The notes beneath the pieces were generated by a model that saw only the letters and a program-made list of their open reading frames with translations, did not search any database and was not told the origin of the DNA. Below are positions 3,001-35,799 of a stretch of DNA of 64,000 nt, one piece after another. The DNA comes from Marsupella aquatica. Taxonomy: Eukaryota > Plantae > Marchantiophyta. The stretch spans positions 24,557,538-24,621,537 of the forward strand of contig OZ316895.1 of assembly GCA_973895155.1 (NCBI GenBank). The letters run 5' to 3'. Every line of letters begins with the position of its first letter. Positions within the stretch are counted from its first letter, which is position 1. The position numbers and the translations under genes are program-made.

Positions 3001-6000
3001 TGCTGAACTCTTCCGGAACGCTATAACAATATTCATTTTATGTGTATCAAATCTCCCGGTCGTGTTGGGTCATTATCGTCGTCCTCATTTATAGCATCTT
3101 TTTGGTGATTGTAACGATGCTAAAGCTTTCAGGCTCGTCAAAAAAAAGACTGGTTATATCCATTTGCAGGCAAGGCCTAGGAGGCTGCCCAATGTTCACT
3201 CTTTTCCTTTAGCCTCCTGGGTCGGGTGTAGCTGATGCATAGAGCTATGAAGTGCTTTATGACCGGACTTATTGAAGATAGCACAGTACTTTTTTGGCAG
3301 GTACATTTACATAGGATTTACATTATTTAGTTCGTCCTCACTTCAGTGCCTTTCGAAGAAGTGATGCCCTGAGTCTGTCCTATGTGATAGTTGGTACTCT
3401 GCCGCCCCTGTAAGCCACTTATAAGGTAAGCGCAGGAGACGCTGACTATTATTTGCTCTCCTTACTGAATGAATTGTACGTGTTGCGTATAGAGAGGCTG
3501 TTTTGTAACAAAAAGTTTCGTAGGCCTTAGCAAGTCAGGTGATACATGGACAGTGAGTGTACTGCCTGGATCGATTTCGCAATGCTTGTTTGATAGCAAT
3601 GTTGGCCTTCATCCTAGTGGATACCGTGGACCACTGGAAGGCAAATCTAGACAATCTTACCCTAGTTATGTCAGTGTTGTCGCAGCTTTTCTAACACAAC
3701 TTGATTTGTGAACATGCACAGTACAACAACTATCCCAGTTTGGGAAAAGGAGCGACAAAGCAATTCAAGAAGCTTGGAATGATTGCTGTCACTCTGAACA
3801 TCATAAATTCATAATGGCTCTTTAGCACTGACGTCGGTACATGAGTTCTGGTGCAGATGACAGTAGTAACTGCAGTTCGAAATGAAGACATTCGCTTCAC
3901 TGCAGGAGCAGCAAAGCATATCATTATCTCGAGCATCTTGGGAGAACAATTTATATTCACGAAACCAGAGATTTTGATCAAACCGTGATGTGATTTGCTA
4001 ACAAAGTAGCCCATTGCATGGAAACTTGCGAATTTCAATTGTGAGTAAAGGTATGAGACACCTAGGCATACGGTTGGTCACTTGTTACTTACTCTATGTG
4101 CTCATCAATAAACGGGATCGTATGCAGGCTGAGAGTTTTAAACCACGCCTAGAATTCTAGCAGAACACTTGCAGGGTCCAAATTTCTGAACCCTCCATGG
4201 GCTCCTAGCAGGGGGTTGCATCCCAGCTTGGGCAAAACAAGAGGGCTCAAATCTTACTTATAAAGGGCAAACTCCAAGCTAGAGAGGAGTTTGGGTCTAG
4301 GTGTCTAGAGTGAAGTCTCTAGACCGCAAGTGTCTAGAGTGAAGTCTCTAGACCGTAACTGGATGGTCCACCATGTGGATGAAATTATTCATGGGTATGA
4401 TGTATGTCAAATGATGATTGTGCATGCTCTTTGTCATGGCTCCTATTTACATTTAAACCCGAAGCTCTCATTTTAAAGAACACAGGTTTAGAAATAGACT
4501 TTGAGCTCCACAAAAGGTGCTAGTGTTTCACCTTTTATGGTGAGTACTGAGACATGGAATGAGGCTTTTATAGTGACAGGTCTTTAAAGCTTTTATAGTG
4601 ACAGGTCTGGTTTAAAGTGGTTTAAAGAATGGGTAATCAGGCTCGTATTTCTAAATGCTAGACTCTCAGGATAGTAGCTACTCAAATTGACCACCGTCAA
4701 CACATGAGTGCTATACAACTATATGCTTTCAAATGCATCCGGTAAGACAACATGGTTTGCACGGGGAATCATGACGAAGAGGAAGACTTGACATCATCAT
4801 CAACGTAGCCTAGTGCTTTGAATGTTGGGAGTGTTCCCTATGATGGAAACAGTGATGCACCTTAAGATAGCTGCTTATATGCTCATCATCAGCAAAGGAT
4901 ATCAAACTCATCCTGGCTTCAAGACAGATCGGAAGGGTAGGTTTGTAATATTTTTTGTAATTTTGCGAGATTCATAACCTGACAGGGCAACCACAGCATA
5001 GCTGTTGTCCCCTTGTTACTTACTGACATTATCTGCTCATGAAGTAACTTGTACCACACCTTCAGCATAGCTATTGTCCCAACTTTATCAGCTCATGAAT
5101 GACCATATGGTAGCTGCACTCCAAATGACAGTTTTACCCCACCAAAAACTCATTCAAGCAGGGTACCGTATGTATTGTGCAAGTACACATGGGTAATACG
5201 TGTACTATCTTGATACCTTGTAAGAAAAGACACAACTCACGTTTTAAATCAATGCCACATGGAGATGTTAATAAAGAATCTGTAAATATTCATGGAATAA
5301 GACAGCATAATTCAAGCAAATCCAAAGACAGCATCCACAGAACTATGTCAGAATTCAACCTTGCAAATTCACTATATGGTGGATCCAATAGCCTATAATT
5401 CATGCATGTCAGTGCTACTTTATCCTACATGTTCAATTTGTTCGGCCCGATGGCTATTACCTGCTCTGCCATTCTGATGACTAAGACAAATAATTATGCC
5501 AATTGCAGAGGACTAAACTAGGTCTAATGACCACATCTCCTAGGTGCACACTAGAATGCTTAATCTCAACTAGGATCAGAAATCTAATAGTGTGTGCCTA
5601 AACCCTAAACTTTCGTTGCCAATGTAAGAACCTGATCCTCATAATATAAGTGCATGTGGTTTGGGCAAGAAGAGTCTTTGAAGCCCCTCTGATTTCTTTG
5701 CAAGGAAAAAGAAATAACCACAACAACAAGAAGTCCACTGACAACCATTAAACACAAAGTAGGAAGAGCTCAAAATAAATAGCATTTTCTTCTTTGAAAG
5801 AAGGTGTGCCTATTGTCAGCAAATAATCTAGCATGTAGACTGGTCTTGGCGTCTCCTGGTAGGAGAAATGTCCCCAAATCCACACCACGAATAAACCTCA
5901 GCAGACCAAGTTGAACAGACTCATTGAGTTGTTCAAAGGAATCTATTGAAACCCCAAATATCATGGCTCATAGTAGTCTTTGTGTGAATTGCTTTTTCCG

Positions 6001-6713
6001 GTTCAGTTTCCATGATGCTAAGAAGATAGTGTGAGTACATACCTGAGATTAGGGCAAATGATATGGAGGGGCAGGGAGGGGAGCTACTGTAACGTACACG
6101 TTGCAGACTCTAGTTCCAGCAAGTCTCCAACTTTTAATATACCTTGGCATCTCTGGTCCCAACAAGTCTCACACTTTTAACATCCTTGGCATGCCTACTT
6201 AGTATAATATTCGAGTCCAACAGGGACAGTAGTCTCCTACTTAGTGTAACTAGCCTGATTACCTGGTCCTTGAATGTCAATAAAGACTGAGTTAAGAAAA
6301 ATCCAAAAGAATTTATTATTATTATTTCCGGTTCATTTTTGCTCCTATCCCGGTTTTCTGTATCAATGCATTTTCACTTAAATATCCCTTAACTTAGAGT
6401 CAGTGTCTTGAGGCTTCACTCTAGAATGTAACCATGAAGAGTAAATTTTGAACATGCTTTACTAGTAAAACATTCCTGACCATTCAAACAAGCATGGGCT
6501 ATAGTCCCCTGGGTATGCAGAGTGTAATTTTCAAATCAGACAAGCTTCAGTTGGACAACATTAACTCATGTCACTATTGAGGTTTGTGTCTAAAATTGTA
6601 TAATTATATAAGGGAAGGTCAGACAGTGTTAACTGCATTAACTCACCTCAATATTGAGGTTTATCAAAAATGGCTTGTAGGGGTGGCCCCATTGGTCCAC
6701 AAAATGCTTGTAT

Positions 6714-6736
6714 CAGTCTATTCATTAAAACTGGAA
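6714..6736 (+). repeat. Left terminal inverted repeat
   Basis: CAGTCTATTCATTAAAACTGGAA; the reverse complement of the right end reads CACCCTATTCATTAAAACTGGAA. Confidence 0.85.
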
Positions 6737-6749
6737 AATTATTTGATCT

Positions 6750-6872
6750 TTGGACATTTGGGCACCAAAATATATACTTTTGGGTACAAGAATTGTACAT
6801 TTGGGCAGTGAAAGTTGTATATTTGGGCACAAGATCATGTACATTTGGGGAATCAAGATTGTATATAGGGGA
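6750..6872 (+). repeat. Left subterminal degenerate ~22-bp tandem repeats (TGTACATTTGGGCACAA-like)
   Basis: 5-6 units, e.g. tggacatttgggcaccaaaa, tgtacatttgggcagtgaaa, tgtatatttgggcacaaga, tgtacatttggggaatcaaga. Confidence 0.7.
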
Positions 6873-9410
6873 AAATGAAATATTAATTTGGATTCTAAAG
6901 AAAAACATTTGGGTGATAATAATGTAAAATATGTTGGATAAGAAGTAGAAAATTGATTCAATCTGACTAACTAGTAAGTAAGTAATATAATATAACTAAA
7001 GCTAACTTCAATATGATCTCGACCCTAGCTCAACCTTCTACGTAATAAATGAAAGCATTAATTTATAAACTTGTCAGGATGGTATCTATCCATATTAATT
7101 CAAGTAACTAACTAATTTGTTAGTACATTCTATAGTAAGCAACTCGAGTTGAAACTAAGGTTTACTAGAGGCAGTCACATCCCATCACGGATATGACTTC
7201 TTGTAATATAGTCAGATAGTATTATGTAATTATAATTAAAGCAATTAATATAAAGGTATCCAAGTCCAATTAATACCTCCTGCCCACCTATTCAAACTAG
7301 TCTCCCAAAATATTATAAAAGTTACTTCTAAGATTCACTAGTAACCAACTAGTACGTAAACTAAGACATTCCAAACCAATTGACATACTTAGACTCCCTC
7401 ACTCTGACTACTAGAAAACTTTAATTTGACTTAATGAACAATCCCTTCCATGTAGGTTTTGAGTGTGTTCAAAACATTCTTGGGAATGGTCAAACCTCTA
7501 TCAATTATATTTTCTTCTCTAGAGCGTGACTTGAATCCATACATAGCAGAATTAGCAAATTGCCAACGTTCAGTGGCACTGTCAAACCCAGGATCCATCT
7601 CCCAAGTCTTAGTAGTCTGAAAGCAACGTGAATATCGTACATGATCCAGTGCATCATGTTTACCATGTTTAGGCCTCCACCATTGCACTTGGAACATAGG
7701 AGCATACCTTGTACTAGTAGAAATACTGTTATTGCATTGCAAGTCTCCTGAAGGAACTTCATGGTTTGGGTCCACAACACCCAAAGCTCTCACCAACCAG
7801 AAAAGTTTTTTGCCATTCTTCTTTTCCCATTCATCCTTTGGACGAAGAAATACAAAGTGGCCCTCTTGAATGTCCTGGAGAGGAATCCAACGGGCAAGTT
7901 CTCGCTCGTGTCGAGTGCCAACAAATGGTGCAGTTTGATCCTCCATCTCTTCCAGGTACTCATTCTGAAGCTCCACCATTTCTGGATTCTGTGTACTACT
8001 ACTAGGTTCCCCCAATGGTTCAGAGGTTCCTGTACTATTCACCTTGTAACCAGTTCCGTGGTTGGTTTTTGGCCAAAACTCATATGTCAATGCCAACTGT
8101 ATTTCGGCCTCCCCTTCAATTGTAAGCTCCCCAGATAATACTTGCACCACCATTTCCCAATATTTCACCAAAGGAAACCTCTCACGATATGCTGTAGAGG
8201 TCTCATCCTTACAACTCTTCTTCAAAAACTCGATGTAACGATTAAGGAATGGGATGATTTCTTCAACCTTGCCTCGTACATCCCCGGAGATGGGTTTTGC
8301 AAACGGTTGACCTTCTGGTAAAATGAGAGCATTGGTGTTGGAATCAGTTCTCCAAATGGACCTTCCGGTTGAAGGGTACCAAGGTTGTTTCACATGTGCT
8401 TTGTATTGATATATTGGAACATTATCTCTCATAGAGAAAAGAAATGCCACTGGTTTTGAGTGACCCTCTATGTCTTTTACCTTGAAAGTTTTCAAAAACT
8501 CTTTGTAAGCTGCAACCTCTTGAATCAACCGTGGAACACGATGAATGCTTTCACACTCCCAAACCTCAGCCATCAACCCCAAGAGGGTAGAAACCTCCTT
8601 GTACTTCACTTGGTTGGATACTTTTGAAAACAATGCATCAACATCCTCATGGGTGTGACCAACCATGAGAAATGACATCTGCACTGTTTCAAAGACCCCT
8701 CTACTAACAAGCTCACTGCAAAATGTCATCACGTACTGGTTTTTGTTATCTTTCCCTGAATTATCCATTTGCAAGGTCAGGTGCCTTGGCAATGGTTTGA
8801 AAGAGGTAGCAGCCTTGGGATCAATACCAAACTCGTCATCCACCACATTTGATAACCCAATATCTTGGTCATCTTCAGCTCCTTGAAATCTAGCAATTGA
8901 GACTTTTTTGGGTTCTAAGTACCCTGCAAGAAATGCTTCAAAGTCCAAAAGAGATTGAAAAATTGGCCTCGTTGCAGCCCAATATAACCCTTCAAGGAGG
9001 TCTCCAGATTTGTCCCCCTTGTAATCCTCCAGATCTCTAAGGCACTTGGCCAACGATGTCACTATGAAGTCTACATCTCCTGGCCAAAGCCCAGTGAAAC
9101 TGAAGTGAGCATACACTCCGGGATCCCTTTTGTGGGTCAACATCCCAGTGAGCGCAATGGGGAGAGGTTGACCACTGCCGGACAATGATTTAGGAGTGGG
9201 GACCAACCTAGGGATCCATGTCTTGGCTTGGTCCATCTTGTCATGTATAATGCAAAGATAGTTCTCAGGATCCTTCTTCGCAAGAACCCTGTGAGCATAG
9301 TAAACATATCTCCTAGACATTTGCTCATGAAGATGACGAGCTCTTCTTTCCTCAATCTCTAAACGCTCTTTCTTTCTCTTCTCACGCATCAACTGATCTT
9401 TGAACTCAGT

Positions 9411-9707
9411 CTCGGGGGTTTCACTTCCACAAAAATGGCATATCACGTGCGACGAAGGATAGGGTCATTTTATTGGTTCTAAGGGAAGACTTAAGAATTT
9501 TTGTAGAAGAACAATAGGGTCTTTTAAATTCAATTTTGAGACTTATAAGAACATTAGGGTCTTTTTAATCCATTTTTTAGAATATTCCAAGAATATTCCA
9601 ACTTTATAGGGGTTAAAAAATAAATTTTTTTTCTTACATTTTAGGGGGTTCGAGGCCTAAAAACGTCGCAGGCGATAGGGAGGTCCCCATATAGTGAGAC
9701 CCCTGAG
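9411..9707. mobile_element. 297-bp MITE inserted in the transposase
   Basis: 8-bp TSD AACTCAGT (9403-9410, 9708-9715); 15-bp TIR CTCGGGGGTTTCACT vs CTCAGGGGTCTCACT (13/15); AT-rich interior. Confidence 0.9.
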
Positions 9708-10519
9708 AACTCAGTGCAAAGTGTACACTTTGCAAATGCACTACCCTTGTGAAAGTCAAAATTCATGAAGGACTCACTCCAGAGTTTATACATAGTGTTT
9801 TCACTCACCTTCACGTAGCCATCTAATTCCATCTTGGAGTACACCTCAAAAATCTCTTTCTTCGTGAAACAAGATGGAAGTCTATACTCAACCGTGTCAG
9901 TACCATGAGACCCTCCATAGGGTAGATGCGGCATGGGTTCTCCGTTTTGGGTTAGAATGGACTCCAACAAAGCACGAGCGTGCAAGGTGCTTCCCCGTGT
10001 CTTGTGTGAACCCTTGTTTCCATGGAATCCAACCTTGCAACCTGCTTTGTATTGATTTTTGTAATCATAATACTTGGCAGTGCTGAATCCATGCATTTTA
10101 ATAAATGCACCCTTGCATACACGTCGACCTCTTACAACAAAATATCCTTTTGTCTCCACTTCCTTCTCCCTGCAACCAAAAAGAGTGAAAATGTGACTGG
10201 TTTTGTTGTCGTTTGACATCCCATGGTATTCCCTCCTTATCGCCTGTAGGTCTTCTCTCGGCATGTTGAGGCAACACTTCAACTTACAACAACCTTCTCT
10301 TTGGATGGAATCAATTTCCTCCTCTGTGATTTTCAGAATTGCCCTCGACTCCAGGTGCTTCTTCCTTTTTTCATCAGGGTTCCCCTTCGTTCTCTTGATG
10401 AAATTATAAGGCCGTTTTGAAAACTCAGTGTGACCATTCATATCTACCTCTAGACAATCTCGACCATCAATAATTGGCTCGGGAGAAACCTCTCCAATGA
10501 GATCCAGAAGAAAAATCCC

Positions 10520-11440
10520 CCTTGATATCAGCACAAGTGAACGGATGGCCCACCTAACAAGACCGGGCACTCCGGGGGAGATATTCGGGAAAAATTGAGG
10601 GTCAATCACGCCTGTGACAACAACCCCAACGTGATCTGGCCCAAGAACCTCATCATCAATGGCACCGGACTCGAAAGGAACTGTGATGATGCCAAGCCCG
10701 ACCTTGGTCCGATTATCATCAACATACAATTCCACTTCCTCCGCCATCCAGTTCGAATGCAAACTATAATCTTTGAAATTATCATTTCCAAAAACATCCC
10801 GTGCGGACGGCTCATCTAGTAAATCATGGGAAGAACTCCTTTGATGAACATTCCTTAAATTCCAGATTACAAAATTGTCCAATCCTTCCTGAACGGTATC
10901 GGCTCCAGCGTGCGGAAAGGGTAACCTCTCCATTCCTTGAACAACTTCACATATCTTCACACTAATCCTATCAGGGCCAAGTCTTTCATTGTGACAAGTG
11001 TCATCGGGATTCATCTTGAATACAAATCCTCGACACACAATCTGATTTCCAATCGAGAGCTCCACTTCATCGCCATCTGTAATTGAGTCTCCCAAACTTC
11101 CCACCGCAGATTTGTCAGGTAAGCAATTGGGAAATGTATCATTTGTAGAACATGTAGCATCCACTTGTGTCATCGCTGGAGTTGACTGTGACCTCAAATA
11201 TGTGAAAGAGGCATCCCAAATAATGCAGGAGTCTACAGCATCAAAAAGTGTCCTGATCGGTGGCAACGGGAATGGAATTTCTCGAGATCCATCATAGCAC
11301 CTCTCAATAAGAACTCCTATACGATTAATACCCAAATCAACGTTACGCACTGAGTCACCGGGGTCAACCTTAAGGACTGTTCCAGAGGCAACTTCAACTC
11401 CGTCAAGTAAGAGGGAAACCTCGTCTCCTCGAAAGAATAT
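10520..11440 (-). other. Three tandem Tnp1/En-Spm-like (Transposase_23-type) domains at the transposase N-terminus
   Basis: Three units with the pattern V(A/C/G)xG…LG…(I/V)xV…P…(I/V)xW: VASGTVLKVDPGDSVRNVDLG…IPFPLPPIRTLFDAVDSCIIWD; VCRGFVFKMNPDDTCHNERLG…LPFPHAGADTVQEGLDNFVIWN; VGLGIITVP…VLGPDHVGVVV…GLVRWA. Confidence 0.65.
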
Positions 11441-11542
11441 CCCCATTTGGAAAAGATGTTCCAAACAGGAAGCTGTTGTACCTCGAGATGATCTCAAGGT
11501 AAAGTGACTAGCAAAAACAAACCAACTGAACTAGCAGTAACA

Positions 11543-11777
11543 GATTAAGAAGTCTTTAGCTCGAGACAATCTCGAGGTAAAGAAAGGACCACAAAAATCA
11601 CGAGATATAGATTAACAAAGTCTTCAGCTCGAGACGATCTTGAGGTAAGTAATGGACCACAAAAACCACGAGATATAGATTAACAAAGTCTTCAGCTCGA
11701 GACGATCTTGAGGTAAAGAATGGACCACAAAAACCATGAGATATAGATTAACAAAGTCTTCAGCTTGAGACAATCCA
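11543..11777 (+). repeat. 68-bp tandem repeat (~3.5 units), each carrying the element palindrome, upstream of the transposase
   Basis: Unit gattaacaaagtcttcagctcgagacgatcttgaggtaaagaatggaccacaaaaaccacgagatata; palindromes at 11559, 11627, 11695 and 11763 (partial). Confidence 0.9.
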
Positions 11778-13476
11778 CATGAAGAGGGAATTCTATACTT
11801 CCAACGATCAATAATCCACCCTAGAAGAAGAACTATGAAGTGCATAGAAACAACAGCTCATAATAACTCCTCAGAGAAGCATGAACTCACGCAAGAGAAG
11901 GAAAGATACTTAAATACTTGTGGATTTAAAGGAGCTAGAAACAAAAACAGACAATTCCCAAGAAGATACCTAAAGCTTGAGACGATCTCGAGCCACAAAT
12001 GACACTCTAATTGAAAAATATGTTGTTATGATTGAGGAGCTCTAGATGATCTAGAGGTAAAAGTTTGACATTGAAATACATAAAGTAGGCTTATAGAAGA
12101 CTAATGAGAAATAGCTTAAAAAAAAGAGAAAAGGTTCACAAATGGATTCTGAGTGACAATGTTTTAAGCATAAATGGTTTGGTATTCTAAAAGGTATGGG
12201 TTCAATTATTTTAGACCAACTTCATGGCTTCAAATGAGAATGTCTCCAAAACCAAATAAACAACTGAGAGAGAAAGGACTTCGAGAAAAAATCTAGAGCC
12301 AGAGAACAGGGAGCGAGAGGCAGGGGCAGGAAGAGGGATAAGAGAGAGAATGAGGGGAGCAGGAAGCGAGCAATGAAACAATATCTGAAGAATGACCCGA
12401 TGGAGAGGAAAACGAGCAATATATAAAATCCTGCCTGACCAGACGGCTCTGTCAAACCAATGGCAAGGATGAACTAGCGGCAGGGTGAAGTACAGACCGC
12501 AATAATGATGGTACGTGTGACAGCACCGTCATCATGACTCAACTCAAGATTCACTCCCACGCATGGGCGCGTGGCATCCTGCACGTGGCCGGGCATCCGT
12601 CGTCGGGCACCCCAGCCTGACTCAGGGCCGACCGAGCGGCTTATAGTCCACATTCGCAACGTCGCCACCCTCATTTGCACATTTGCCTCCCTGCCTACCT
12701 CCCCTCCGCGCCTCACTCGCCTCTTGCTTGCTGCCTCTAGATATTTTGTCACTTTTGCCTCTAGATCGTCATTTTTTCCTCGAGACTTGTTTAGGGTCAA
12801 GATCCCCTTTGAGCCTCGAGATATTTTATAGCCGTTTGGATTGAGATTTTCTTGTGAGCCTCGAGATAATATTTTCTTATATCACCCAGATCTAGTATCC
12901 ACTATCCAGTAGCCATGTCGACCGTTGTAGATTTCTCCAAGGACAACTTCGCCGAGTACGACGCATCAACTGTAGCGATGGAGCTTCAGACCCTTCTAGA
13001 TTCATCATAGAACATCCACCGCACTATCAAACGTAATATATTATCTTTTCTCATTGTTAGATGGAGGTTTGGCTCGAGATCATCTCGAGCTTCAAATCAT
13101 ACTTGGTTTTTGATCCACTTGAGGGTCGAGATCATCTCGAGCCGATTGATATTTTCTGCATTACTTTGCTTCAAGAGGTGGCTTCGAAGTGAACAAGTTT
13201 ATCGTTTGTAACTGAGATTAGGCTCGAGATCGTCTCGAGCCTAATATCCACAAAGTTAAGAGGTTTCTGTCATTTTCATATTGATGTATCTGTCAGATTG
13301 CTGTATCTGTCATGCTGTATCTGTCATGCTGTATCTGTCAAATACTAACAGCATATCCAAAAGGGATTATGGAAAAGGCAGATTTAGATTCCTATTGAAT
13401 ATGTTGTTCGTATTTGACTTATGTTTTGTTATTTCCGATGGAAAACAATATCCTTCGGAAACCAACATCATATCGA

Positions 13477-14110
13477 AAGTCGTCCAAGCTTGCTTCTGAA
13501 AATGACTTCTGTACTCTCCAACTTGTTCTGATCATGGAAATCATCCCGAGTTAGAGAGTTTTTGAAGCCTTTGCCAGAGGTGAACTTGGACAACTTTTGA
13601 GTATGTTGTTCGTATTCGATCGACATTCTCATATTTGAGAATCAATGTCTTCAGTGAAGAAACATGATAATGCAAAGATTTAGTTAACGGTGAACGAATG
13701 CCAATTGTGAGTCTCTGTATTCTAACTTTTAGAGACTTGGGTCGAGATGATCTCGACCCAAGTATTAAAATATCCAATTCATCAATAGTGTACTAACTTT
13801 TTGCCTTGTCAGATTTTTTGCATATGGAAGACCACGTCTATCGACCACAAAAGTCGACCAAGCTTGCTTCTGTCAACGACTTCTGTACTCTCCAACTCGT
13901 TCTGATCATGGAAATCATCCCGAGTTAGAGAGTTTCTGAAGCCGGTGTTAGACATAAGCTTGATCAACTTTTGAGTATGATGTTCGTATTCAATGGAGAT
14001 TCTCATAATTGAGAATCGATGTTTTCCTACGACGAAATATGATAATGCAAAGATTTAGATACCGTTGACTGTTTAGCCACGATTGACTCTTCCTGTATTC
14101 TATTTCTAAA
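13477..14110 (+). repeat. ~250-bp imperfect direct duplication inside the first cargo-gene intron
   Basis: aagtcgtccaagcttgcttctg…gataatgcaaagatttag at ~13477-13730 and ~13851-14110; each copy is followed by a palindrome (13740, 14130). Confidence 0.85.
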
Positions 14111-15344
14111 GTATTGTTCACGAATTTAGGGTCGAGATCATCTCGAGCTTCCATTGTATTCCATGCTTGCCATCTGTAGATTGCGAAATACCCTCCAACT
14201 CGTTTCCATTGATGATTGGGGTTCGAAAAGGTGATTGGTAGTTGGGTTTATGATATTTTAGAATCAATTCCTCCCCCCAAATACATCTGGCCATGAAACA
14301 ACGGTTTTGTACTTATTTGAGTTCAACTATGTTAATGGGTGAGGGAAGCTCGAGATCGTCTCGAGCCTCTTACGGGATTTCTCATTTCTGTGATTCTGAC
14401 AATTGGTCTATTTTTCATTTTTTCCAGGTGCAAAATTGGGATCGCCCAATTTGATTGTTGAAGATGAACATGCCCTTGAGGTTTTGTGCCCTGGACAAAC
14501 TGATATAGGATTCTGTTGGGCCATTGAGCTAGCTGAAATTGAGGAGATGGAGGGGTCAGTTATTTGCTTGAAGACGAGGTCTCCATCTACCAAACCTCTA
14601 GTTTGCAGCTTACTTGGGCCTGTTGTTTCCATTGTCACAAGTAATGGTAAGGACATGGTCTTGACGGTGGAGAACCATGAGACTGGGAAATGGGCTCTCA
14701 TTAGGCTTCACTCCAAGAACTACTCGTGCAATCTTAATATTGAACGTGCTGCTAGGAAACAACTGAGCGTGATACCAATGGGATTCTTCCCCGATGGATT
14801 TACTGCCAGTAATTTGTTGGAAGAGTCCAAAATGACTGGGGCAGATATAATTTTTGGATTCTTGTATTGCCGGAAATACGGTTTTGATCATGACAATGAA
14901 TTCACGACTCCTTTCACTTGGAAGGTTTTGAGAATAATGTCAGATTCCAAGGTGGGAGAGTTTCAATCCATTTCCCCTGATTTTGTTTTTGGAGCTGGTG
15001 AATTTGACGAGGAAGGGTGTAAGAAGTGGGTGTTGTCTCATCGGAGACAAACAGGTAAAGGAAAATCAGGAGCTTCAGGAGATAAGATGTCAGGCTCGGA
15101 CAAGAAGGAGGTAAAGGTGGCGCAAAAGAGGAAAAGGGTTGAGAAACCTGAAAGCGCTTCGAAGAAGGCTCCGCCTAAGAAAAAATCTGCGCCTGTAAAG
15201 GTAGATCTCATTCTGGCATCTTCTTCGGGTGTGATTGCACATACCGATGATGATGGCACTCCAGGAGATGCTCCGGGTGAAAAGAGCGTTAAAGAAGGAG
15301 CCGAAGTTCTTAAGGAGATTGAGGAGTATTACACATTTGGCATG

Positions 15345-15790
15345 AATGAAACTTTTGACATTCCTGTCACTAGTATAGATTCACCTTCTGCAGTTTTGGT
15401 ATATAGGATGTTCAATAAGGACCATGCCATGGAGATCGCAAAATCCATGGTTAGAAACCCTGGAATGGTACCAGCTGTGGCGGATTTAATTCCGTATTCA
15501 AGAGAGAGTTCGCAGTTGCTCCATTATGATAATACTCCTGAGGATCGAAAGGAGTTCGAGTGGGGTGTTAAGAATAAGAAGGTGCAATTCCTTGCAATTA
15601 GTGGACAACACTCGGCCAAGGCAGCAGTTTGGATCATTGGTTGGTCTAAGAGCGATGCAAAGTTGAAGGAGGTCACCAAGAGTCTTCAGCTTTGAAAGTC
15701 ACAAATTCTTTTGGACAAAACTCCAAGAACAATACTTGCTCAACACTCACAAAGGGCAAATGCAGTTAACAAGACAATGGAGTATGAGTC
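15345..15790 (+). other. ParB/Sulfiredoxin-like domain in the cargo protein
   Basis: FDIPVTSI…YRMFNKDHAMEIAKSMVRNPG…FLAISGQHSAKAA…(stop)KSQILL…HSQRANAVN follows the ParB-N pattern (IPxxxI, R, LAxSI..G, IDGxHR, terminal EN/AN); the GxHR Arg is replaced by Ser. Confidence 0.6.
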
Positions 15791-16759
15791 CTATTTTCTT
15801 GATACTATGGTCCATGCCCGTCGACAGTTTGACGTGTGTGGCCATCCGGAGAGACTCGTGATTGGGTCCAATAGACTAACGGATCATCAAAAGTTCCAGG
15901 TATATTCGAACTCAAATCCACTTCTAGCTCGAGATTGTTTCGAGCCTCAAGGTCAAGTTTTTGTATTCAAGTCTTTTTCAATAAATTCCAACATAGTTTC
16001 TTCATTCTACCTCTAGATCGTCTCAAGCCTCAGATTTTCGTTGTTATCTTTGGATCAGGATTTCATGGCTTTGGCCAAAATAACGACTGGAAAATCTGAC
16101 CTGAAGAATATTTTTTGGTTGTTGTTTTCGGAAGAGAAACTGTTCCAGTCTTGGAGACTAATATGCATCGATTGGGTCAAGGGGCTTCTTCCTGATGGAC
16201 TTGGTGAGTTAGGTTCAAAAATGAACGGGAAAAGCCGGACAACAAAAATGATTACACCGGCATTGTTTAGATGCTTTGAAGGGGACCTCAGTAGTGAGGA
16301 CATTCTAAAGGTGTTCACCGCCGTTCATCATCAAAAGGTTCTATTGAAGAAAGACCCGGCGAACAAATCTGATGTTCAATCAATGAGTGACATGGCCCAT
16401 ACTTTTAAAGTCATGACAAAGCTGAGGGCAAAAATCGTGGAGTACTACGTTTTAAAGTATCCCGAAAATTTTTCCGATTCACTTACTTGGTTTGAGCTAA
16501 CTCAATTTTTGCCAGCATTTTTAGATCGCGGCGAATTGCCGAAACTGAGACAGCTCGCTGGGGAGGTTTGGCTGTCCAATCTCCTAAAGAGAAATAGGGC
16601 CAAAGAACCATTGCCGCAAAGTCTCATTGTGAAGCTTGAGCAGATATAGTGCAAGACGTTTGGTGGGACTCCTGCTATGGTGGATACTCCTTATCACAGT
16701 TTTTTAAGCGACAATCTTATGAGGACGATGAAGCCGGAATCAGTTGGACCCTTTCATAA

Positions 16760-17480
16760 TACGTGCGCACTTGCCGTTGTCGACTTTGGTCGTATTCGAC
16801 AACGTCAGTGGACAGATGCTGAGATTTTTGTCTTGTTGGAATATTGTCTGGAGATGTCTAACTCAACCGAGTTTTTGGCAATCATTTTTGTCCGTCAGGG
16901 CCCTTTAATAGGCCAGATTCAGAGTGCCTTCGAGAAGTTCCGTCGTGAGAAGAAAGTCCACACTAAGCTCGAGTACGATAGTTACTACCATGAAGATGTA
17001 CCCAAGGAGGAAGGTGACTTTCTCATAGGAGCACGGGACACTATCATTTTTGGGGGAGTTTGTTGTGATGAAGAGCCTGACTGGTCCCAAATTTTCTTCG
17101 ACGATTTTTATGCGTTCTGGAATTACAATGCTAAGTACGACAAAGACTTCACCATCTTACCGATGAGGTCTTCCGCTGGGAAAAGCAAGGATCAACAAAG
17201 AGGGAAAGAGAAGCAGGATGAAGTTGGAGTTGATGTCAAAGTATTGGAGAAGATGGCCCCGTCTTATGAGATGGTCGGTCGGAGAGGGGGCTTTGTAAAC
17301 CCCAGAGCTAAACCTATACGAATGACAAAGCGTCTTGTTGATTATTTCTCCAGCACTGGTCACACAGTGCTTGACTTCTTCTTCGGAGGGCAGACCCTCA
17401 AAGCTTGCGTCATTGTTGGTCAGGATTGTTTTGTTTATTCTGACACAGCTCAAGAGATGGAATTCATCGAAGCTTATGCG
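16760..17480 (+). other. Degenerate beta-class N6-adenine/N4-cytosine DNA methyltransferase-like domain
   Basis: VNPRAKPIRMTKRLVDYFSSTGHTVLDFFFGGQTLKACVIVGQDCF resembles the N6_N4_Mtase C-terminus (HPxxKPxxLxxRLI..S..GD.VLDPFxGSGTT..A....R.F); the motif IV position probably reads LAVVDFG (no DPPY/SPPY). Confidence 0.65.
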
Positions 17481-18603
17481 CGGCTCCTCCATGACAACCG
17501 CCATGTTTTATATATTCCACCCCGAGAGTCGTTGCCATCTGAGGCCATTGAAGTCGGTCCCCTTACTGTTTTGGAAGAAGTGGCCTCGGATCCAGCTCCA
17601 GTTGAGGCGAGTGTTTCCGAGGAAGTTTTTGCGGAGAATTTGGAGCATCGCAAAACAGAGGGCCCCAAAATCCCAAGCTACATGGAAGAGGAGGGTGAAA
17701 TATTGCCCGAATTTAATGAGGTAAATGATGGTCGAGATGATCTCGAGCTTCCTGGTGTACCTTCTTCGGGGGACGTGTTTCATGCAGAGGATGCACAACG
17801 TGAGCAGCAGTCTTTGAACTTGGATGTTGGTTGGGAAACCACCTTGCAGGATGCTGCCAGCCACCCAATTCCTAGCCCACCTTGACTCGATGAGATCCTT
17901 TCAACCAAGAAAGCTTGTTGCTCCCCTGCCATAACTCCCCCTCAGGACGAGGCAGGTGCATCGTCTTCTCCCTTGGACCAAATGTTTTGCGCTTCAGAGG
18001 ATAAGCTTGTTTTCACAGATTCTTCTACTGGAAGCCCCATAATTCTCCCTTTTGTTAGGAAACCTGGTGTTGAAATCGGTAGAACTGACTACAAATCTCT
18101 CAAAGCTAATGCTACTCATTATGTGTGGATTCATGGTCCATCAAAAGGCGAACAAGTCAGTGTAGATCAGGCTGAGAAGATTATGCGTTCCAGGGATTAT
18201 AGGAAAAATAAGTTCAAATTAGTGCCAGTCTGGTCTGAGCCAGCTCTTGTTGAAATGCTTCCTGGAGGGATCAATTTGGACATCCAAAACCAATTAGGAG
18301 ATAACCTTCTAGATGAATTTGGGTCTTTTGGCAAGTGACGTTGAAACCCAAGCTACCTTCAGTCCTCAAATTCAGCCATCTAAATTATTATGTCTACCTT
18401 CACAGTGATAGGCGGGCCATTACCAGTTGTGGATTGCATCGACAATAGTCTCCAAAGCTTTCCACATTCTTTGACATCTGCCCTTCAGCCAATTGCAGGT
18501 TTGTCACGCACTGTTGTTCATTTACTTTTCATGCTCGAGATCATCTCTAGCCTACCATTATTTTGTCTCACACAATTTTAATATAGGTGTCTCTTGTTTG
18601 CAG

Positions 18604-19661
18604 GACCCTTGCCTCCACTTCACGGTCCAATCAGACGGAAGCTATTGATTCTTGACCTCAACAAAATGTGTTGGGATTCTGTTAGAACTCCGAGTCCCGG
18701 ACCGCGTCGAAGTGCCACAAGTGTCAAGGGTGTTCATTGGGGGAGAAGTGGAGGATTTAACTTTATGTATGTTGAGCGTCCCCATCTTCACGAGTTCTTA
18801 ATCGCAACTTTTGCTATATTTGATGTTGCCATCTGGACTTGTGCGAGAAAGCCCAGGGCAAATGAAATGATTCATTTGATCTTCACTCAAGAAGAGCAGG
18901 AGCAATTCAAGTTTATTCTAACGCAAGAAGATACATTTGACACTGGAATCCAGAGGCCTGATGTCACCGAAGGAAAGGCAAATATTCTTTTGAAGGATTT
19001 GAGGGTTGTTTGGAAACGTTATGGTTTATTATACGATGAGACTAATACACTCCTCCTTAATGACTCTCCAATGAAGGCGTTTGCAAATCCAGAGAATTGT
19101 GGGTTGTTCCCTTCTTCATTTTTGCATCACTCCACGGATGATACTTTCTTTCCCGAAATACTGTGGCCTCTGCTGAGGAAATTGTATCATGCCTTCAATC
19201 TTCAACACTACCTATTTATCAATCAACCAAAGTGGTCTATGATCAATGTTTTATCGGACAGGGATCAACATGCTGCCATTTATGCGCTGTTGTCGGAGAG
19301 GTGGGGTAGTATGGTATGGGTTCCCACTGTTATCCATACAGTCTTGGATGTTACAGCGGACGAAATTCCCTGGGATATCAAGAATGAAGTGCAACAATTG
19401 CCACCAATTGAGGAATTGACGGAGGAGGCGATCGAGGACCTTATAAGGATATTAATTGGGGATCAGTATACAGGACCCTATAGAGACAATCATCTGGCAT
19501 TTGTTTTGGAAGTTCTGAGGACTAGAGACCTCACGACTAAGTTTTGGAATAGAAATCCTCTGGATTTCTGCAATCGTGATATGAAATATGACCCGTCAGG
19601 GTCTAGATTTACTTGCTCAAATGAATTCTGCGGGGAGGAGGATCATGAGATTTGGGTCTAG
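18604..19661 (+). CDS. FCP1/NIF-type HAD phosphatase-like domain (probably the last exon of the cargo gene)
   Basis: RRKLLILDLNKMC…YVERPHLHEFL…FDVAIWTCA…LLKDLRVVW…YDETNTLLLNDSPMKAFANP; acceptor ttgtttgcag at 18603. Confidence 0.8.
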
Positions 19662-20244
19662 ATGATCTCGACCCTACACCAAACACTGATTATTAGTTAG
19701 GGGTATATGTTTGCAGGAAAGCGTGAAGCTTACCGTAACATCCATTTGGGTCTAAATGTTCTCGACCCTCTACTGAAGAAATAGGATTTTACTTATAGAT
19801 ATATACTCATAAAAAGGTTAGTCTATTCGGGTCTTAACCCTATACAGAAAGAATAGTAAGTTAAAGATATACATTCAACAACGGGTCAGAATTATGTGAA
19901 CCCTCCATTTTGGTCGAGATGGTCACCATATAGATTTTTATAGATATGCATTCAACAACCGGTCAGAACCATCTGGACCCTAAATAGGGGTCAACGTGAT
20001 CTCGACCCTGTAAAATAGGTTTTATAATTTTATAATACATCACTTGTTTTCCTGGAGTTCCGTGTTCATGACCCTTGGTTAGAGTGTGTCATTTTTAATG
20101 TTATCATTTGAATTTATTGTATTGTCAAACTAATATTGTCTTATTCTATATTTTTATCTGTTTATATTTTAATTAATAATATTTATAATTAATAACTTAG
20201 TTATTTAATAATTTGAGCATCACAATTGTAAATTTACACTTTAA

Positions 20245-20371
20245 AAAGTGTACATTTGGCCACAAAAATGTATGATTTTGGGGACAAAGTTATAGAATTT
20301 TGGGGTGTAAAATAATAGATTTAAACATCAACTTTTGGACTAGAGAAATTCCAGTTTTAATGAATAGGGTG
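20245..20371. repeat. Right subterminal repeats and right TIR
   Basis: tgtacatttggccacaaaaatgtatgattttggggacaaag…; TIR 20349-20371. Confidence 0.75.
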
Positions 20372-21578
20372 ATTTGTTGGGTACTAACCAAGATTCTGCG
20401 TTACTCTTGGAAGGAGGAATAAAATGTATGAATCTTAGTTTATTATGTATCACGCTAAAGAACAGAACGGGCCAAACAGGGAGAGAGGATCTCTATAGGG
20501 GAGAAAATAATGGCAAGTAATTGAAGAAATGCGGAAAGAAATGTCAAGGACCATTGAAACTTTTGAGAGTTTGGTGGCTTTTGAACTGTTCAAGTTGTGG
20601 CACATCTGTTTCTGCCTAATCTATTTTGGGCATTTTGGAAGCTGTCAGTTTGGCGAGCCCTCAACTTCTGTTGCTGAAAGAAGCACAAATCAAAACAGTA
20701 GTGTGAAATCATCAAACATATGGGTATTCACGAGGTTTAGCGAGAGCTTTCGAGGTCATTTGAATGTTTGTTCTCTGCATGTATATGCTCGGGGGATTTT
20801 GGAGCCAGTCAGCAATTTATATGTAAGCTGAGGTGGGCTTTACAAGATGGTGGGGGCCATTAAGTCTCTCTCCATACAGAGCAAAGCTGATGGCCATTTC
20901 CTTCCACAAAAGTTAAAATGCCTGAGCCTAAATGTGTCTGGTTTGGAAGTAATCAATGCAATTCCCTGAAAATAAGCGGCCGTTTGCTCCAAGTTTTTAG
21001 ACCACCTCAAGAGGAAGTCTAAGTTTTTGACAAAAAAGCTTGCACACCACACCTCAGCAAAAAAAGGGACCCACAAGGGGCCCACTGACAGATGACTAGG
21101 TTTGGTAATGATTTTGGTTCATTGTGCCCCCAAGTTCATGTAAAGTGAAGTGTGGTCAGTTCCCACATATGAATGACTAGGATTGCATCTTTCACTTAGA
21201 AAAAAAGGAATTGCTGCCCCCAAGTTCTTGTAAAGCCACCCTGAGACATCTCTGCAAGCTGAGATGAAGAACAGACAACTTTCAAACGCGGAAAAAGAGG
21301 AGTACAATCATGGCTGTAATGATTGTGCAGTTTTTTCTTCGACCTGTAATGATTGTATTGTTCCTGGTCCAGTATTCAATCCTTTCTATCCAATTGGGGA
21401 AGGCATACAATTGGGGAGTTGCAGGGATAATGATGTAAACGTAGGTGAGGCGGCAAAGAGTCTCAACTGAGGCATGTCAGGTGAGAGATCGAGAGATATG
21501 TAGAGCCAGGACTTGGGTTGTTCACTAAAAGAGGCAAACATGGTGAAGGCAGGATCGGAAAGGCAGTAAGCTCTGAAC

Positions 21579-24652: not shown

Positions 24653-25105
24653 TCAGTCATCGTCGCTCCACATCCTGGACTTTCTGAAAATCCTTCTACA
24701 CTCCAAGAGAATGTCCGCAGCAGCAGCGGTGGTCACCACCACGGTCACCCTCTCCTTGAGTACGTTGCATTCCACGGACTTCACGCCCTTCATCTCAAAC
24801 AGAGCAACCTTGATTGAATCCACACATTCTCCGCAGCAAATTGGAACCTTCATCACGACCTTTGTCTCCTTCTTGTCCTTCGCGTCGCCGCCTTCTTTCT
24901 TCGGTTGGGGCGCAATGTAATCCGGATAATAGTAGGGGTAGTAAGGAATGCTTGCGAGTATAGTGTCGTCCTTCTCTGCGGCCTTCTTACCGCCGCCCGA
25001 AGACGAGCTCTTGTCATCGCCCCCTTTCTTGTTGTCATTCTTCTCAGGCTTCAACACCCACACGGGCTCCGAGCCCCCGTAGAACAAATCCTGCATGGAC
25101 ATCAT
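24653..25105 (-). CDS. HMA-domain protein (HPP-type metallochaperone-like), paralogue 1, 150 aa
   Basis: VVMKVPICCGECVDSIKVALFEMKGVKSVECN…RVTVV; ends MWSDDD; start context gcaagATG shared with paralogues 2 and 3; no CaaX. Confidence 0.88.
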   Translation of the reverse strand: MMSMQDLFYGGSEPVWVLKPEKNDNKKGGDDKSSSSGGGKKAAEKDDTILASIPYYPYYYPDYIAPQPKKEGGDAKDKKETKVVMKVPICCGECVDSIKVALFEMKGVKSVECNVLKERVTVVVTTAAAADILLECRRIFRKSRMWSDDD

Positions 25106-30291: not shown

Positions 30292-30783
30292 TCAGTCATC
30301 TTCGTTCCACATCCTGGACTCCTTGAATGCCTTCCTACATTCCATGAGAATGTCTGCGGGAGCAGCTGTGGTTACCACCACCGTCACCCTGTGTCTCATG
30401 ATGTTGCACTGCACAGACTTCACTCCCTCCATCTCATTCAGAGGAACTTTGATTGAATCCTCACAGCCACTGCAACAGATTGGGATCTTCATCACGACCT
30501 CCGTTTCCTTGTTGGCATAACCATACGAATTGTCCGGTAGACGACCAAAGTGATAAGGGTCAGGTTGGTAAGGGTAGGGAAAGTAGGGAGAGTAGTAAGG
30601 ACTTGTCGTAAAGGTTGGGTACTCCTGTTTCTCTGCTTCACTGGCCCCACTTGAAGTTGAGTATTCATCGTTGTCAGTCTCATTCGTGCTTCGTGACTGT
30701 TCCTCATCTTCGCCCTCGTCGTCGTCCCTGGGAATCCAGACGGGCTCCGCCTTCCCGTAGAACAATTCCCTCATGGGCAACAT
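30292..30783 (-). CDS. HMA-domain protein, paralogue 2, 163 aa
   Basis: MLPMRELFYGKAEPVW…VVMKIPICCSGCEDSIKVPLNEMEGVKSVQCN…MWNEDD. Confidence 0.88.
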   Translation of the reverse strand: MLPMRELFYGKAEPVWIPRDDDEGEDEEQSRSTNETDNDEYSTSSGASEAEKQEYPTFTTSPYYSPYFPYPYQPDPYHFGRLPDNSYGYANKETEVVMKIPICCSGCEDSIKVPLNEMEGVKSVQCNIMRHRVTVVVTTAAPADILMECRKAFKESRMWNEDD

Positions 30784-31377
30784 CTTGCTGTGGCGAAATT
30801 GACTCAGCTGAAGAAAATGTATGTCACAAGACCTTTTCGACTTTTGCAATAGAGGCAAAGCAGCGAATTCGTTTCTAAGAACGGCACTGGAGAACGTGTT
30901 GAAAGAAAGTTTGCCATCTCATATATACTGTACAGGTATGCAAGGCAGACGCGATGAAAACAATCGATGCATGGGCAACAATCTTCCTGATTACTCTGTT
31001 CAGGTTGTCTTCCTGGATACGATGATGGAAGCTCTTCCTTGTCATCAGTTGGCTTGGAGGGAAAGGAGAATATTAGCGCCTAGTTTTGTTCGCTTGTGTA
31101 TATTTAGTATGTAACACACACAGACACAGAGATGCACATCACAGCTGTTCTGACCCAGACGGCTAGTCGAACAAGAACTTGGAACCACAACGCGGGAACA
31201 AGCAAACTTCTTGACCACTCGGCTCACAGGTGCCTTGTCGGACACGATTATGGAAGCTCATCCTCGTCACTCAATTGGCTTCGAGGGAACGAGTGTGTTC
31301 AGTGCTCGCTTGTCGATATTGTGACACCCACCGACACAGTGGTGCACATCATTGCTCTCCTCACCAAGGTGGCTTGC

Positions 31378-34400: not shown

Positions 34401-34901
34401 TTCGTTGGAGACAGAAAAATTAGAAATGTAAAATATGTGCTAATGTAACGAATTGAAGGGACAGCATTCCAGTCTAACCGATAGCCTGCTAGCGAAAGTA
34501 GCCACCCTTCTTGGGACACAATAAGTTTAAAGATGCTACTGGAGGTCCCCTACATGTCAAGTGGCAGTGAGATTTTTTATTATCGAAGTGAGACTTGTAA
34601 AGGAACCGTCGTTGTCCAGAACTGTTCAAAAAATAGAACAACACTAAAATCAAGTAAGAAAAAACCTCTAGATCATACATATTTGTGCATAAAAAGCATA
34701 ACAGATATTTTGTCATTTCCAACAGTCCGTCAAATCAATGACACGGAACACCTAAGGGTTGCATTAGCCAACCATTATTTAACACGTAATGTGTCCAACA
34801 ACCTTGTGTAGGATCTCCACCAAGGCACCTACTTTTCGTCCCTGATAAATTGTCCAATATTTCTGCACCTATCTTCTTCTCCATTACATGCTTCCACTGG
34901 T

Positions 34902-35684: not shown

Positions 35685-35799
35685 CCAGAGGTGGTACAAC
35701 GGCTCCAAGCAGCCCATGGACCTTTGGTGGCTGCATTGCAAAAATTTGAGGACCTTGGGCAGCACAATGGCCAACCAATAGCCCCAATCTTGAGCGCAC

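Follow-up and report, generated by a model that had tools for sequence, protein, structure and literature searches.

Does a liverwort transposon encode a protein together with the DNA sites that this protein reads, and what might such a pair do for the element? The question is raised by a 13.7 kb element of Marsupella aquatica (contig OZ316895.1), which occupies positions 6714..20371 of the 64,000 bp stretch that was analysed (the window). A sequence-only reading had described a giant transposon with a transposase gene, a divergent cargo gene and many copies of a CpG palindrome, and had proposed from these a self-regulatory epigenetic system.

Ends and classification of the element

The element is bounded by 23 bp terminal inverted repeats (TIRs), the left one (6714..6736, plus strand) beginning CAGTC and the right one (20349..20371, minus strand) beginning CACCC. 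They are inverted relative to each other and agree at 21 of 23 bases, and no further TIR matches are present in the window at ≤5 mismatches. The dinucleotide AT lies outside the left end (6712..6713) and again at 20372-20373 and is a candidate 2 bp target site duplication (TSD), with chance agreement possible at a single insertion site; the flanks (left GTAT, right ATTT) do not fit a TSD of 3 bp or 4 bp. Subterminal repeats of families D8/D9 are present at both ends on the plus strand, with a period of about 22 bp on the left (6750..6880) and about 22 bp long on the right (20226..20290). In public sequencing runs the flank contigs, at single depth, end 25-27 bases within each TIR-bounded end (5500-6739 and 20345-20906 in run X1, with the left contig end at 6739 also in run X4), and the interior lies under deeper contigs than the flanks in all four runs. 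Depth in run X2 is 5300-5750 over the transposase, cargo and right end alike and 20 in the flank, where the contigs of these runs are mutually unlinked and contig depth is not copy number. The TIR-bounded 13.7 kb unit is thus borne out, and the element is a member of a repeated family.

The minus-strand transposase has a DUF7869 core of DDE type (Pfam, E 8.7e-42). Its 3' part (7431..9410) encodes the catalytic region that follows a CxxC motif (HDKMDQ, DNxxKDNKN, GHTHEDxD) and has 124 homologues, with the acidic residues invariant in all 29 that were aligned. The 5' part (9707..11446) is stop-free over 580 codons. A profile built from the portion of Riccia P0102 that scores with PF03017 picks out three Tnp1/En/Spm-like repeats in it (residues 9-52, 134-170 and 233-281; E 3e-11 to 7e-17). 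The two parts are split by a 296 bp MITE-like insertion (9411..9706), whose inverted ends are short and imperfect and which sits between 9 bp direct repeats at 9402 and 9707; transposase homologues align straight across it, and it has very high read depth with loose contig ends at 9411. The transposase was therefore correctly recognised from the sequence, but it is not intact.

CAC-type ends with a short TIR and subterminal repeats at both ends are consistent with EnSpm/CACTA in the broad sense, and the element is likely an EnSpm-type DNA transposon; in Pfam and profile searches its transposase combines a DUF7869 core with Tnp1/En/Spm-like repeats. Classical plant CACTA elements of the TnpD type have a Transposase_21 core, a CACTA/CACTG end and a 3 bp TSD, and the element is not one of these, its only Pfam core match being DUF7869 and its ends CACCC and CAGTC. 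The transposase catalytic motifs recall Sola1 as well; Sola1 is rejected on its 4 bp TSD, the left flank being GTAT and the right ATTT. A VANDAL-type assignment is rejected on the transposase, which matches DUF7869 and no MULE.

The cargo and NIF/FCP1-like genes

The cargo gene is on the strand opposite to the transposase, as in the algal type of accessory gene discussed below. Its 5' region (12915..14427, plus strand) contains what may be the first exon (ATG near 12915) and predicted introns in which six palindromes lie, and is followed by an exon (14428..15899) encoding a lysine-rich stretch and a ParB/Srx-like region (approximately 15290-15860, motif ISGQHS). A predicted phase 0 GT..AG intron with two palindromes (15900..16058) has a counterpart of identical position and phase in relative L001, and homologues P0161 and P0279 read through it. 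The last exon (16059..18338) encodes a helical domain, a methyltransferase-like fold, an acidic linker and a short conserved C-terminal domain. This copy of the element is dead: in-frame stops interrupt the cargo at 13008, at 15693 in the ParB-like exon, and at 16647 and 17883 in the last exon. The stop at 13008 is private to the window copy, with C in the other copies in three of the four runs and no cover in the fourth. P0279 is an intact homologue, a single 1009 aa ORF that aligns to window positions 15279-15854 (34%) and 16059-18335 (26%), and in it the ParB-like part (a weak label) and the methylase-like part lie within one protein. By comparison with such homologues we infer that the cargo would be one spliced protein with a ParB-like domain, a helical domain and a pseudo-methylase in that order.

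Immediately downstream on the plus strand is a NIF/FCP1-like gene (18390..19661; exons 18390-18498 and 18604-19661), whose start and intron (18499-18603, holding one palindrome) are predicted from sequence. It matches the NIF domain (Pfam, E 1.8e-15) and UBLCP1 (E 3.5e-7). The catalytic motif of FCP1/SCP/UBLCP1 phosphatases is DxDx(T/V), and in its place there is DLNK in the window, DVEG in Riccia models and DLNG in Adiantum models. In both plants the automatically predicted gene models fuse the cargo and FCP1-like parts. Here, nonetheless, the ORF is probably a third gene and not a portion of this clade's cargo protein, since P0003, P0278 and P0279 all terminate where the window has its stop at 18336-18338. 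The long plus-strand cargo gene of the earlier reading thus holds as a divergent gene homologous to a 1009 aa protein, albeit with four stops; the FCP1-like domain placed in it is real, but it probably has a gene of its own and is without the catalytic motif.

Riccia, Calypogeia, a fern and Ginkgo also harbour relatives. Two of the 19 cargo locus tags in Riccia sorocarpa adjoin one of 56 transposase tags, where 0.08-0.09 adjacencies are expected (p 0.003), and the other 17 have no adjoining transposase among those in a partial list.

A methylase fold without its catalytic motif

An AlphaFold model of P0279 (108 aligned sequences) has pLDDT mostly >90 at residues 260-750. Residues 463-758 superimpose on CcrM (Z 17.8, rmsd 3.7, 222 aligned), and the model also matches M.BceJIV, M.MboIIA, M.PvuII and M.RsrI (Foldseek E 4e-7 to 5e-5). 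A cargo profile matches M.RsrI and M.MboIIA with the motif order IV ... X, I kept. On this modelling, the last exon region is a beta-class amino-methyltransferase fold of prokaryote/phage type, sharing fold and motif order with CcrM, M.RsrI, M.PvuII, rotifer N4CMT and Marchantia DN4MT1. Beta-class enzymes keep (D/S/N)PP(Y/F) in motif IV (the available text on Marchantia DN4MT1 gives TSPPY; bioRxiv 10.1101/2021.02.12.428880), unlike the cargo clade. The window cargo, lacking (D/N/S)PP(Y/F), has DFGR where DPPY stands, and a profile alignment places DFxR on the DPPY motif of M.MboIIA. A DPPY-like motif is absent in 59 of the 63 aligned relatives with a residue there (about 3 of the 59 being misaligned). 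The land-plant cargo clade is thus likely to consist of predicted pseudo-methylases that have lost the ability to methylate, and the amino-methyltransferase-like domain noted earlier survives as a fold but not as a catalytic site.

In our estimate the cargo is very unlikely to be instead a working N4C or N6A methyltransferase that marks the palindromes by means of an atypical active site, as has been suggested for the algal proteins. The fold is kept whole, relatives conserve both the aspartate of motif IV and the DFFSGG region of motif I, and four deeper relatives of the 63 rows retain DPPY, DPFY, DPPF or DIPH and cluster with a prokaryote-type methylase (SH-aLRT 90, in a quick tree with long branches). 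However, the positions that follow the aspartate differ freely from relative to relative (DFSR, DLTH, DFAR, DAAH and others), and compared with M.RsrI the motif I region lacks one residue.

The upstream region is more elusive. Its ESM Atlas scores are 0.95 for fungal DUF3723 clusters and 0.91 for a cluster in which 35% of the members carry ParB_N, and ISGQHS aligns to the GxxR box in two of four phage ParB proteins. The hhalign probability is 1.2% at best, searches of 12 intact cargo homologues in Pfam, NCBIfam and PHROGs gave no ParB match, and the region has a pLDDT of 40-55 in the P0279 model. The CTP-binding box of ParB is GxxRxxA; the cargo family has GQHS, GAHS, GLHS or GNHS, and both CTP-box arginines are substituted. 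The similarity thus hints weakly at a ParB-type domain. The helical domain is modelled at high confidence, and a whole-model structure search identified no DNA-binding domain in it (best Z approximately 5).

A palindrome confined to the element

The 17 bp CpG palindrome STCGAGAYNRTCTCGAS has 18 matches at ≤2 mismatches, all within 10448-19672 (at 10448, 11482, 11560, 11628, 11696, 11976, 12040, 13073, 13125, 13223, 13741, 14131, 14349, 15928, 16011, 17731, 18534 and 19656), as against 0.16 expected and at most 2 in 100 shuffles. Weaker copies are at 7007, 19750, 19913 and 19990, and at ≤3 mismatches there are 21 within the element and one elsewhere in the window. The claim of about 20 element-confined palindromes is upheld. 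The element is 65% coding, and 16 of the 18 lie in its non-coding DNA (p 3e-6 by a binomial test, in which three copies belong to a single tandem repeat and short 5' exons may be missing from the model). Six are in the spacer between the divergent genes (11447..12914), presumed to be a bidirectional promoter, three of them in a 68 bp tandem repeat, and most predicted introns contain at least one. Each site has two CpGs, and 11 of the 36 CpG positions are altered across the copies. With motifs masked, CpG observed/expected is 0.64 in the spacer and 0.88 in the cargo 5' region, and 0.34 in the site-free transposase 3' half and 0.30 at the left end, a contrast that is confounded by promoter position. 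The single homologous intron available, that of the distant relative L001, has no palindrome.

The sites could have nothing to do with the cargo, serving host factors or acting as RNA hairpins that aid splicing, since STCGAGAYNRTCTCGAS can fold into a 7 bp stem and is so common in the introns. We regard this as highly improbable: six copies are intergenic and two exonic, and the remaining 50 kb of the window, several host genes among it, has none at ≤2 mismatches. A further reading, unlikely in our view, is that the palindromes are read by the transposase, or by a Tnp1-like protein spliced from its 5' part, and the cargo has another job. The three Tnp1/En/Spm-like repeats lie in the transposase N-terminus, and in the available text of bioRxiv 10.64898/2026.08.24.746577 transposases can act as sequence-specific activators in their own right, TnpA-type regulators derive from transposases and the AtMu1 transposase alone activates its copies. 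TnpA sites, as described there, are terminal, whereas the termini here carry the different 22 bp repeat; the palindromes lie in the interior, most closely packed near the cargo, with none at ≤2 mismatches in 6714-10447.

A proposed role and its relation to known systems

A plausible scenario, to which we give about an even chance, is that this dead copy belongs to a repeated, likely EnSpm-type family whose helper protein would bind palindromes of the element itself and keep the element unsilenced with a methylase fold that likely does not methylate. The helper would bind as a dimer on a two-fold symmetric 17-19 bp site, as ParB does on parS, and its occupancy would shield the palindromes from host CG methylation or recruit host demethylation, as with VANC and TnpA; this is proposed because every site has two CpGs and the sites are spread over spacer and introns. 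The subterminal 22 bp repeats would be the transposase's own sites, a separate system, and the NIF-like protein would be a non-catalytic partner that may engage the transcription machinery. With methylase and phosphatase both devoid of catalytic motifs, any effect is more likely to come from binding than from chemistry. The protein-plus-cognate-site system of the earlier reading gains in part from the element-confined, non-coding palindromes and from the recurrence of the cassette in liverworts and a fern, twice beside a transposase.

The cargo could also bind the palindromes to a non-epigenetic end, either to bridge or organise the 13 kb element when it transposes or to act as a repressor of its own two genes; this too is unlikely. 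The parS-like symmetry and spread of the sites, the six in the spacer and the lost catalytic motifs, which suit a scaffold, agree with it, but it leaves aside the two CpGs in every site and the higher CpG observed/expected around sites than in site-free parts, where promoter position confounds. A bolder extension of epigenetic binding, which we put forward as improbable, is a parS/ParB-like self-marking of land-plant EnSpm-like transposons by pseudo-enzymes: a dimer would load at intron palindromes and spread, the dead methylase fold would mask CpG bases or flip them, and RNA polymerase II machinery would be held there by a partner that is a dead CTD phosphatase. If true, this would be a third, bacterially derived anti-silencing route beside VANC and TnpA, testable in a liverwort.

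The system is not, as first supposed, apparently undescribed: accessory genes with ParB and N4/N6-methylase, and the idea of self-binding, are published for brown and red algae (PMC12477816; bioRxiv 10.1101/2025.02.11.637652). As far as its available description goes, Ectocarpus Sola1-1_Ec32 (PMC12477816) is a 21.5 kb giant DNA transposon in which a 1104 aa ParB-like plus N4C/N6A methyltransferase gene lies opposite to the transposase, and self-binding and self-modification are proposed for its product. Compared by description, the likeness is in size class, strand and a ParB-like plus methyltransferase protein of about 1100 aa. Sola1-1_Ec32 differs in being a Sola1 element with AACCG ends, a 282 bp TIR and a 4 bp TSD, as opposed to CAC-type ends, 23 bp and a candidate 2 bp TSD; only here are there a land-plant host, loss of DPPY, a neighbouring NIF-like gene and palindromes throughout spacer and introns. 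Ectocarpus EnSpm-1_Ec32 has the same CAC-type end pattern, and the accessible description notes neither ParB nor methylase and calls its transposase a fragment (PMC12477816). Red-algal Plavaka giants (EnSpm superfamily, 17-19 kb) are described as carrying N6-methylase and ParB-like accessory genes (PAG2/PAG3) adjacent to inverted-repeat arrays proposed as binding sites (bioRxiv 10.1101/2025.02.11.637652). In those elements one gene joins ParB to a 2OG-oxygenase and another joins the methylase to a SET domain, whereas one protein is predicted here, and their repeats are tandem arrays beside PAG3 whereas these sites are dispersed.

VANDAL/VANC is the functional model: an accessory gene within the element, with the element's own motif enriched in non-coding DNA (here 16 of 18). 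According to the text available, VANC21 binds to short motifs that lie within introns and between genes of the element that encodes it, and VANC binding and demethylation are demonstrated experimentally (PMC5735166). VANDALs are Mutator-type, with 8-9 bp non-palindromic motifs in tandem repeats, as opposed to DUF7869 and a 17 bp palindrome. En/Spm TnpA shares the broad superfamily by its ends and the Tnp1-like domains; by the same partial account (bioRxiv 10.64898/2026.08.24.746577) it is transposase-derived and acts at terminal motifs, whereas the cargo has a prokaryote-type fold and internal sites. What appears new here is the occurrence, in a clade of land plants, of predicted pseudo-enzymes together with palindromes throughout the introns.

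The algal genes with ParB and methylase have been put forward as a further anti-silencing class (PMC12477816; bioRxiv 10.1101/2025.02.11.637652, as far as their available text goes). That the land-plant clade as a whole has lost the catalytic motif is an argument for this class working by binding and not by writing 4mC/6mA, a reading that changes the published algal hypothesis. To our knowledge, sequence-specific countering of host silencing by transposons has been shown for VANC and TnpA only. With a sharp candidate site, a recent near-identical family, intact homologues and a transformable Marchantia, the proposal is directly testable, and if true it would provide a new sequence-specific tool for epigenome editing.

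Element ends and the repeated family

The element at 6714-20371 is a real feature, delimited by 23 bp inverted repeats with 21 identical positions (left end CAGTC, right end CACCC), with an AT dinucleotide on both flanks and subterminal repeats of about 22 bp next to both ends. Its repetition was assessed in public assembly contigs from four runs (X1-X4) of two studies, one of them possibly on the source sample; for these, contig depth is not copy number and the contigs over the element are unlinked to each other. The X1 flanks are represented by identical contigs with depths of 14.7 and 20.7 that end 25-27 bases inside the element ends, and the interior by contigs that are approximately 98-99% identical with depths of 53-79, roughly 3-5 times the flank; the ratios in X2, X3 and X4 are similar. 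Diverged contigs are far deeper, at 5300-5750 across the transposase, cargo gene and right end in X2, against a flank depth of 20. The two ends thus clearly delimit a family of repeats that has a few close and many diverged copies, a point on which the sequence-only reading had made its proposal depend.

In X1, one contig of depth 363 connects position 6825 with 20245 and so brings the two subterminal regions together. The joint may come from a short non-autonomous derivative, although its matched side is just 28 bases and the shared repeats may explain it. A second repeat lies immediately to the right of the element (20828-21245), with 30 bp inverted arms (20828-20857 and 21216-21245) and high depth.

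The transposase and a nested insertion

The transposase gene is on the minus strand (11446 to 7431) and matches DUF7869 (E 8.7e-42), a term of which no mention was found in the literature searched. There are 124 homologues among 5602 candidates, with those named coming from Calypogeia (70% across half of the query), Riccia, Ceratodon and marine invertebrates, which makes a liverwort host likely; the acidic residues of HDKMD, DN and GHTHEDxD are invariant in all 29 aligned homologues. The N-terminus contains three repeats that resemble the PF03017 (Tnp1/En/Spm) segment of a homologue from Riccia; a PDB sequence search gave no useful match. The frame is broken by a 296 bp MITE-like insertion (9411-9706), which has imperfect inverted ends, lies between 9 bp direct repeats, and is itself a very high-depth repeat in all four runs; the homologues align uninterrupted across it. 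A 9 bp duplication suggests a Mutator-type family. The segment was also considered as an intron, a reading we reject: the frame is not restored by any GT-AG cut, and both the high depth and the direct repeats mark the segment as a repeat.

The ends, the likely 2 bp target site duplication and the layout all match Ectocarpus EnSpm-1_Ec32, whereas they do not match Sola1. On these features we class the element as probably EnSpm-like in the broad sense and as distinct from the classical CACTA elements of plants (classification background in the available parts of PMC4455052 and PMC5751038).

The cargo gene

The cargo gene is on the plus strand with two long exons (14428-15899 and 16059-18338; splicing predicted), here read through stops as X. 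Its homologue P0279 is a single intact 1009-residue open reading frame spanning both, and a distant relative (locus L001, 27% identical) has an intron matching the predicted one between them in both position and phase. With a cut-off of E 0.001, a three-sequence profile recovered 160 relatives from 1.84 billion representatives, and the 30 looked up include 18 from Riccia sorocarpa and one each from Riccia fluitans, Calypogeia fissa, Adiantum nelumboides and Ginkgo biloba; none of the 30 carries a Marchantia name that would link it to the methylase DN4MT1. A metagenome scan added at least one locus among 597 pattern matches. A short C-terminal domain (17949-18335) is conserved in P0003, P0278 and P0279, with a pLDDT of about 95 at P0279 residues 938-984.

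Four in-frame stops interrupt the cargo gene in the window (13008, 15693, 16647 and 17883). The stop at 13008 is missing from other copies in the public-run contigs, and the second sits opposite a conserved arginine; those at 15693, 16647 and 17883 are probably private to this copy too, judging by intact distant homologues. Because of these stops and the broken transposase, the window copy is, by its reading frames, dead.

The sequence-only reading had also suggested checking the cargo protein by AlphaFold and Foldseek, and the intact homologue P0279 does model as a beta-class amino-methyltransferase (Z scores of 17.8 to CcrM, 16.1 to M.PvuII and 15.4 to rotifer N4CMT); Foldseek returns the same top matches, together with phage methylases in the viral library. 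The methyltransferase-like domain proposed from sequence is present, but its catalytic motif is lost: the window has DFGR at the position of DPPY in M.MboIIA, and a DPPY-like motif is missing from 59 of 63 aligned rows. An active cargo methylase, which the fold by itself would accommodate, is very unlikely given this loss. In a quick tree, the four rows with the motif, Ginkgo included, form a separate group together with a methylase of prokaryote type. These distant ParB-like plus methylase relatives are P0253 (Ginkgo biloba Gb_37443), P0255, P0272 and P0283, of which the first three pass the N6_N4_Mtase cut-off; with motif kept and cut-off passed, a possibly active N4/N6 methylase gene is thus present in a seed plant record.

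The ParB-like region is conserved among relatives, and the window matches a profile built without the window sequence at E 3e-28. Its Atlas scores are 0.95 for fungal DUF3723 clusters and 0.91 for a ParB_N cluster, and its ISGQHS aligns onto the GxxR box in two of four phage ParBs. It has no HMM match in three libraries and low confidence in the P0279 model; 'ParB', another label given to the cargo protein from sequence, is a weak one. A weak, length-limited search of 571 candidates for homologues of greater length gave none.

The third gene, and linkage of cargo and transposase

A NIF/FCP1-like open reading frame could start 52 bases past the cargo stop and has one predicted intron, which contains a palindrome. 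Because P0003, P0278 and P0279 all terminate at the cargo stop, we read it as a probable separate gene, so that the FCP1-like domain earlier placed in the cargo protein is present but would lie outside it. It may alternatively be a fusion; gene models in Riccia (P0176, P0219 and P0224) and Adiantum (P0250 and P0281) place the NIF part in one protein with the methylase-like part, and by these models the pair travels together. The second aspartate of the DxDx(T/V) motif is missing.

Cargo and transposase genes also lie together more often than expected in Riccia sorocarpa, with locus tags as a proxy for position and a partial list of 56 transposases: two of 19 cargo genes adjoin a listed transposase (0.08-0.09 expected, p 0.003), and three lie within five genes of one (0.4 expected, p 0.007).

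The internal palindrome

The sequence STCGAGAYNRTCTCGAS has 18 matches with up to two mismatches, all within the element (0.16 expected), confirming its reported confinement. By column counts the symmetry reaches about 19 bp. Sixteen of the 18 are in spacer, predicted introns or beyond the last stop, with coding sequence being 65% of the element (p 3e-6, a value that hinges on a gene model with edges a few bases off, and three copies share one 68 bp tandem repeat). The intronic copies might invite a host or RNA-level role, which, with every match inside the element, we regard as the least probable reading. The palindrome is absent from the 1802 bases searched of L001. Contig joints and loose ends at 13090-14418, 14369-16049 and 17714, left out of the counts as their matched sides are below 30 bases, suggest that diverged subfamilies carry the palindrome at corresponding positions.

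A 177 bp unit (13476-13652 and 13850-14026, 87% identical; partial at 13392-13434 and 14189-14204) alternates with palindromes in the cargo 5' region, and may represent small exons or untranslated repeats. Viral contigs contain the palindrome at 54 loci, with one exact match each and two or three near-matches at 10; none has an array, and we take these as chance.

Of 36 half-site CpG positions, 25 are intact, five deaminated and six have transversions; the change from TCGAG to TCTAG occurs in the copies at 10448, 12040, 16011, 18534 and 19656. Transversions being about as frequent as deamination, this may be a tolerated variant. Once the motifs are masked, CpG observed/expected comes to 0.64-0.88 near the dense sites, 0.53-0.66 in the remaining exons, 0.30-0.49 in the ends and the transposase 3' half, and 0.24 in the Ty3 element of the window, a pattern that fits local protection from methylation but is confounded by age and promoter position.

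Other features of the window

In a decayed Ty3/gypsy retrotransposon (34812-39505, plus strand), a C5 cytosine methyltransferase domain (PF00145, E 1e-6, 35685-37085) separates the protease-like segment from the reverse transcriptase, and the integrase follows. The available part of PMC5890265 describes this arrangement in the alga Klebsormidium and names no land-plant case. Related heavy-metal-associated (HMA) domain genes are clustered at 24653-25207 (minus; Pfam E 9e-6), 30292-30918 (minus), 43234-43785 (plus) and 48448-48963 (minus).

A candidate protein and site system

The element holds two motif systems, the subterminal repeats, likely the transposase's, and the internal palindromes. 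Transposase recognition of the palindromes as well is unlikely. Since they are two-fold symmetric and repeated only inside the element encoding a ParB-like and methylase-fold protein, the palindromes would most simply be the site of that protein. Its effect on chromatin would come through occupancy or recruitment, because the methylase motif is lost, as modelled on the anti-silencing proteins VANC (available part of PMC5735166) and TnpA (available part of 10.64898/2026.08.24.746577). We put this combination of binding and chromatin action at about an even chance; that the binding serves transposition or self-repression instead is improbable.

The accessible text of PMC4738411 describes adenine methylases fused to ParB-HTH from chlorophytes and chytrids, and land plants as having few N6A methylases. 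No land-plant report of a ParB plus methylase cassette was found in the mainly open-access literature searched; two algal papers alone matched (PMC12477816 and 10.1101/2025.02.11.637652). What would be new is a land-plant clade, with a predicted pseudo-methylase and a predicted pseudo-phosphatase, of a class so far only proposed, from algae, together with a sharply defined, intron-wide candidate site in the palindrome.
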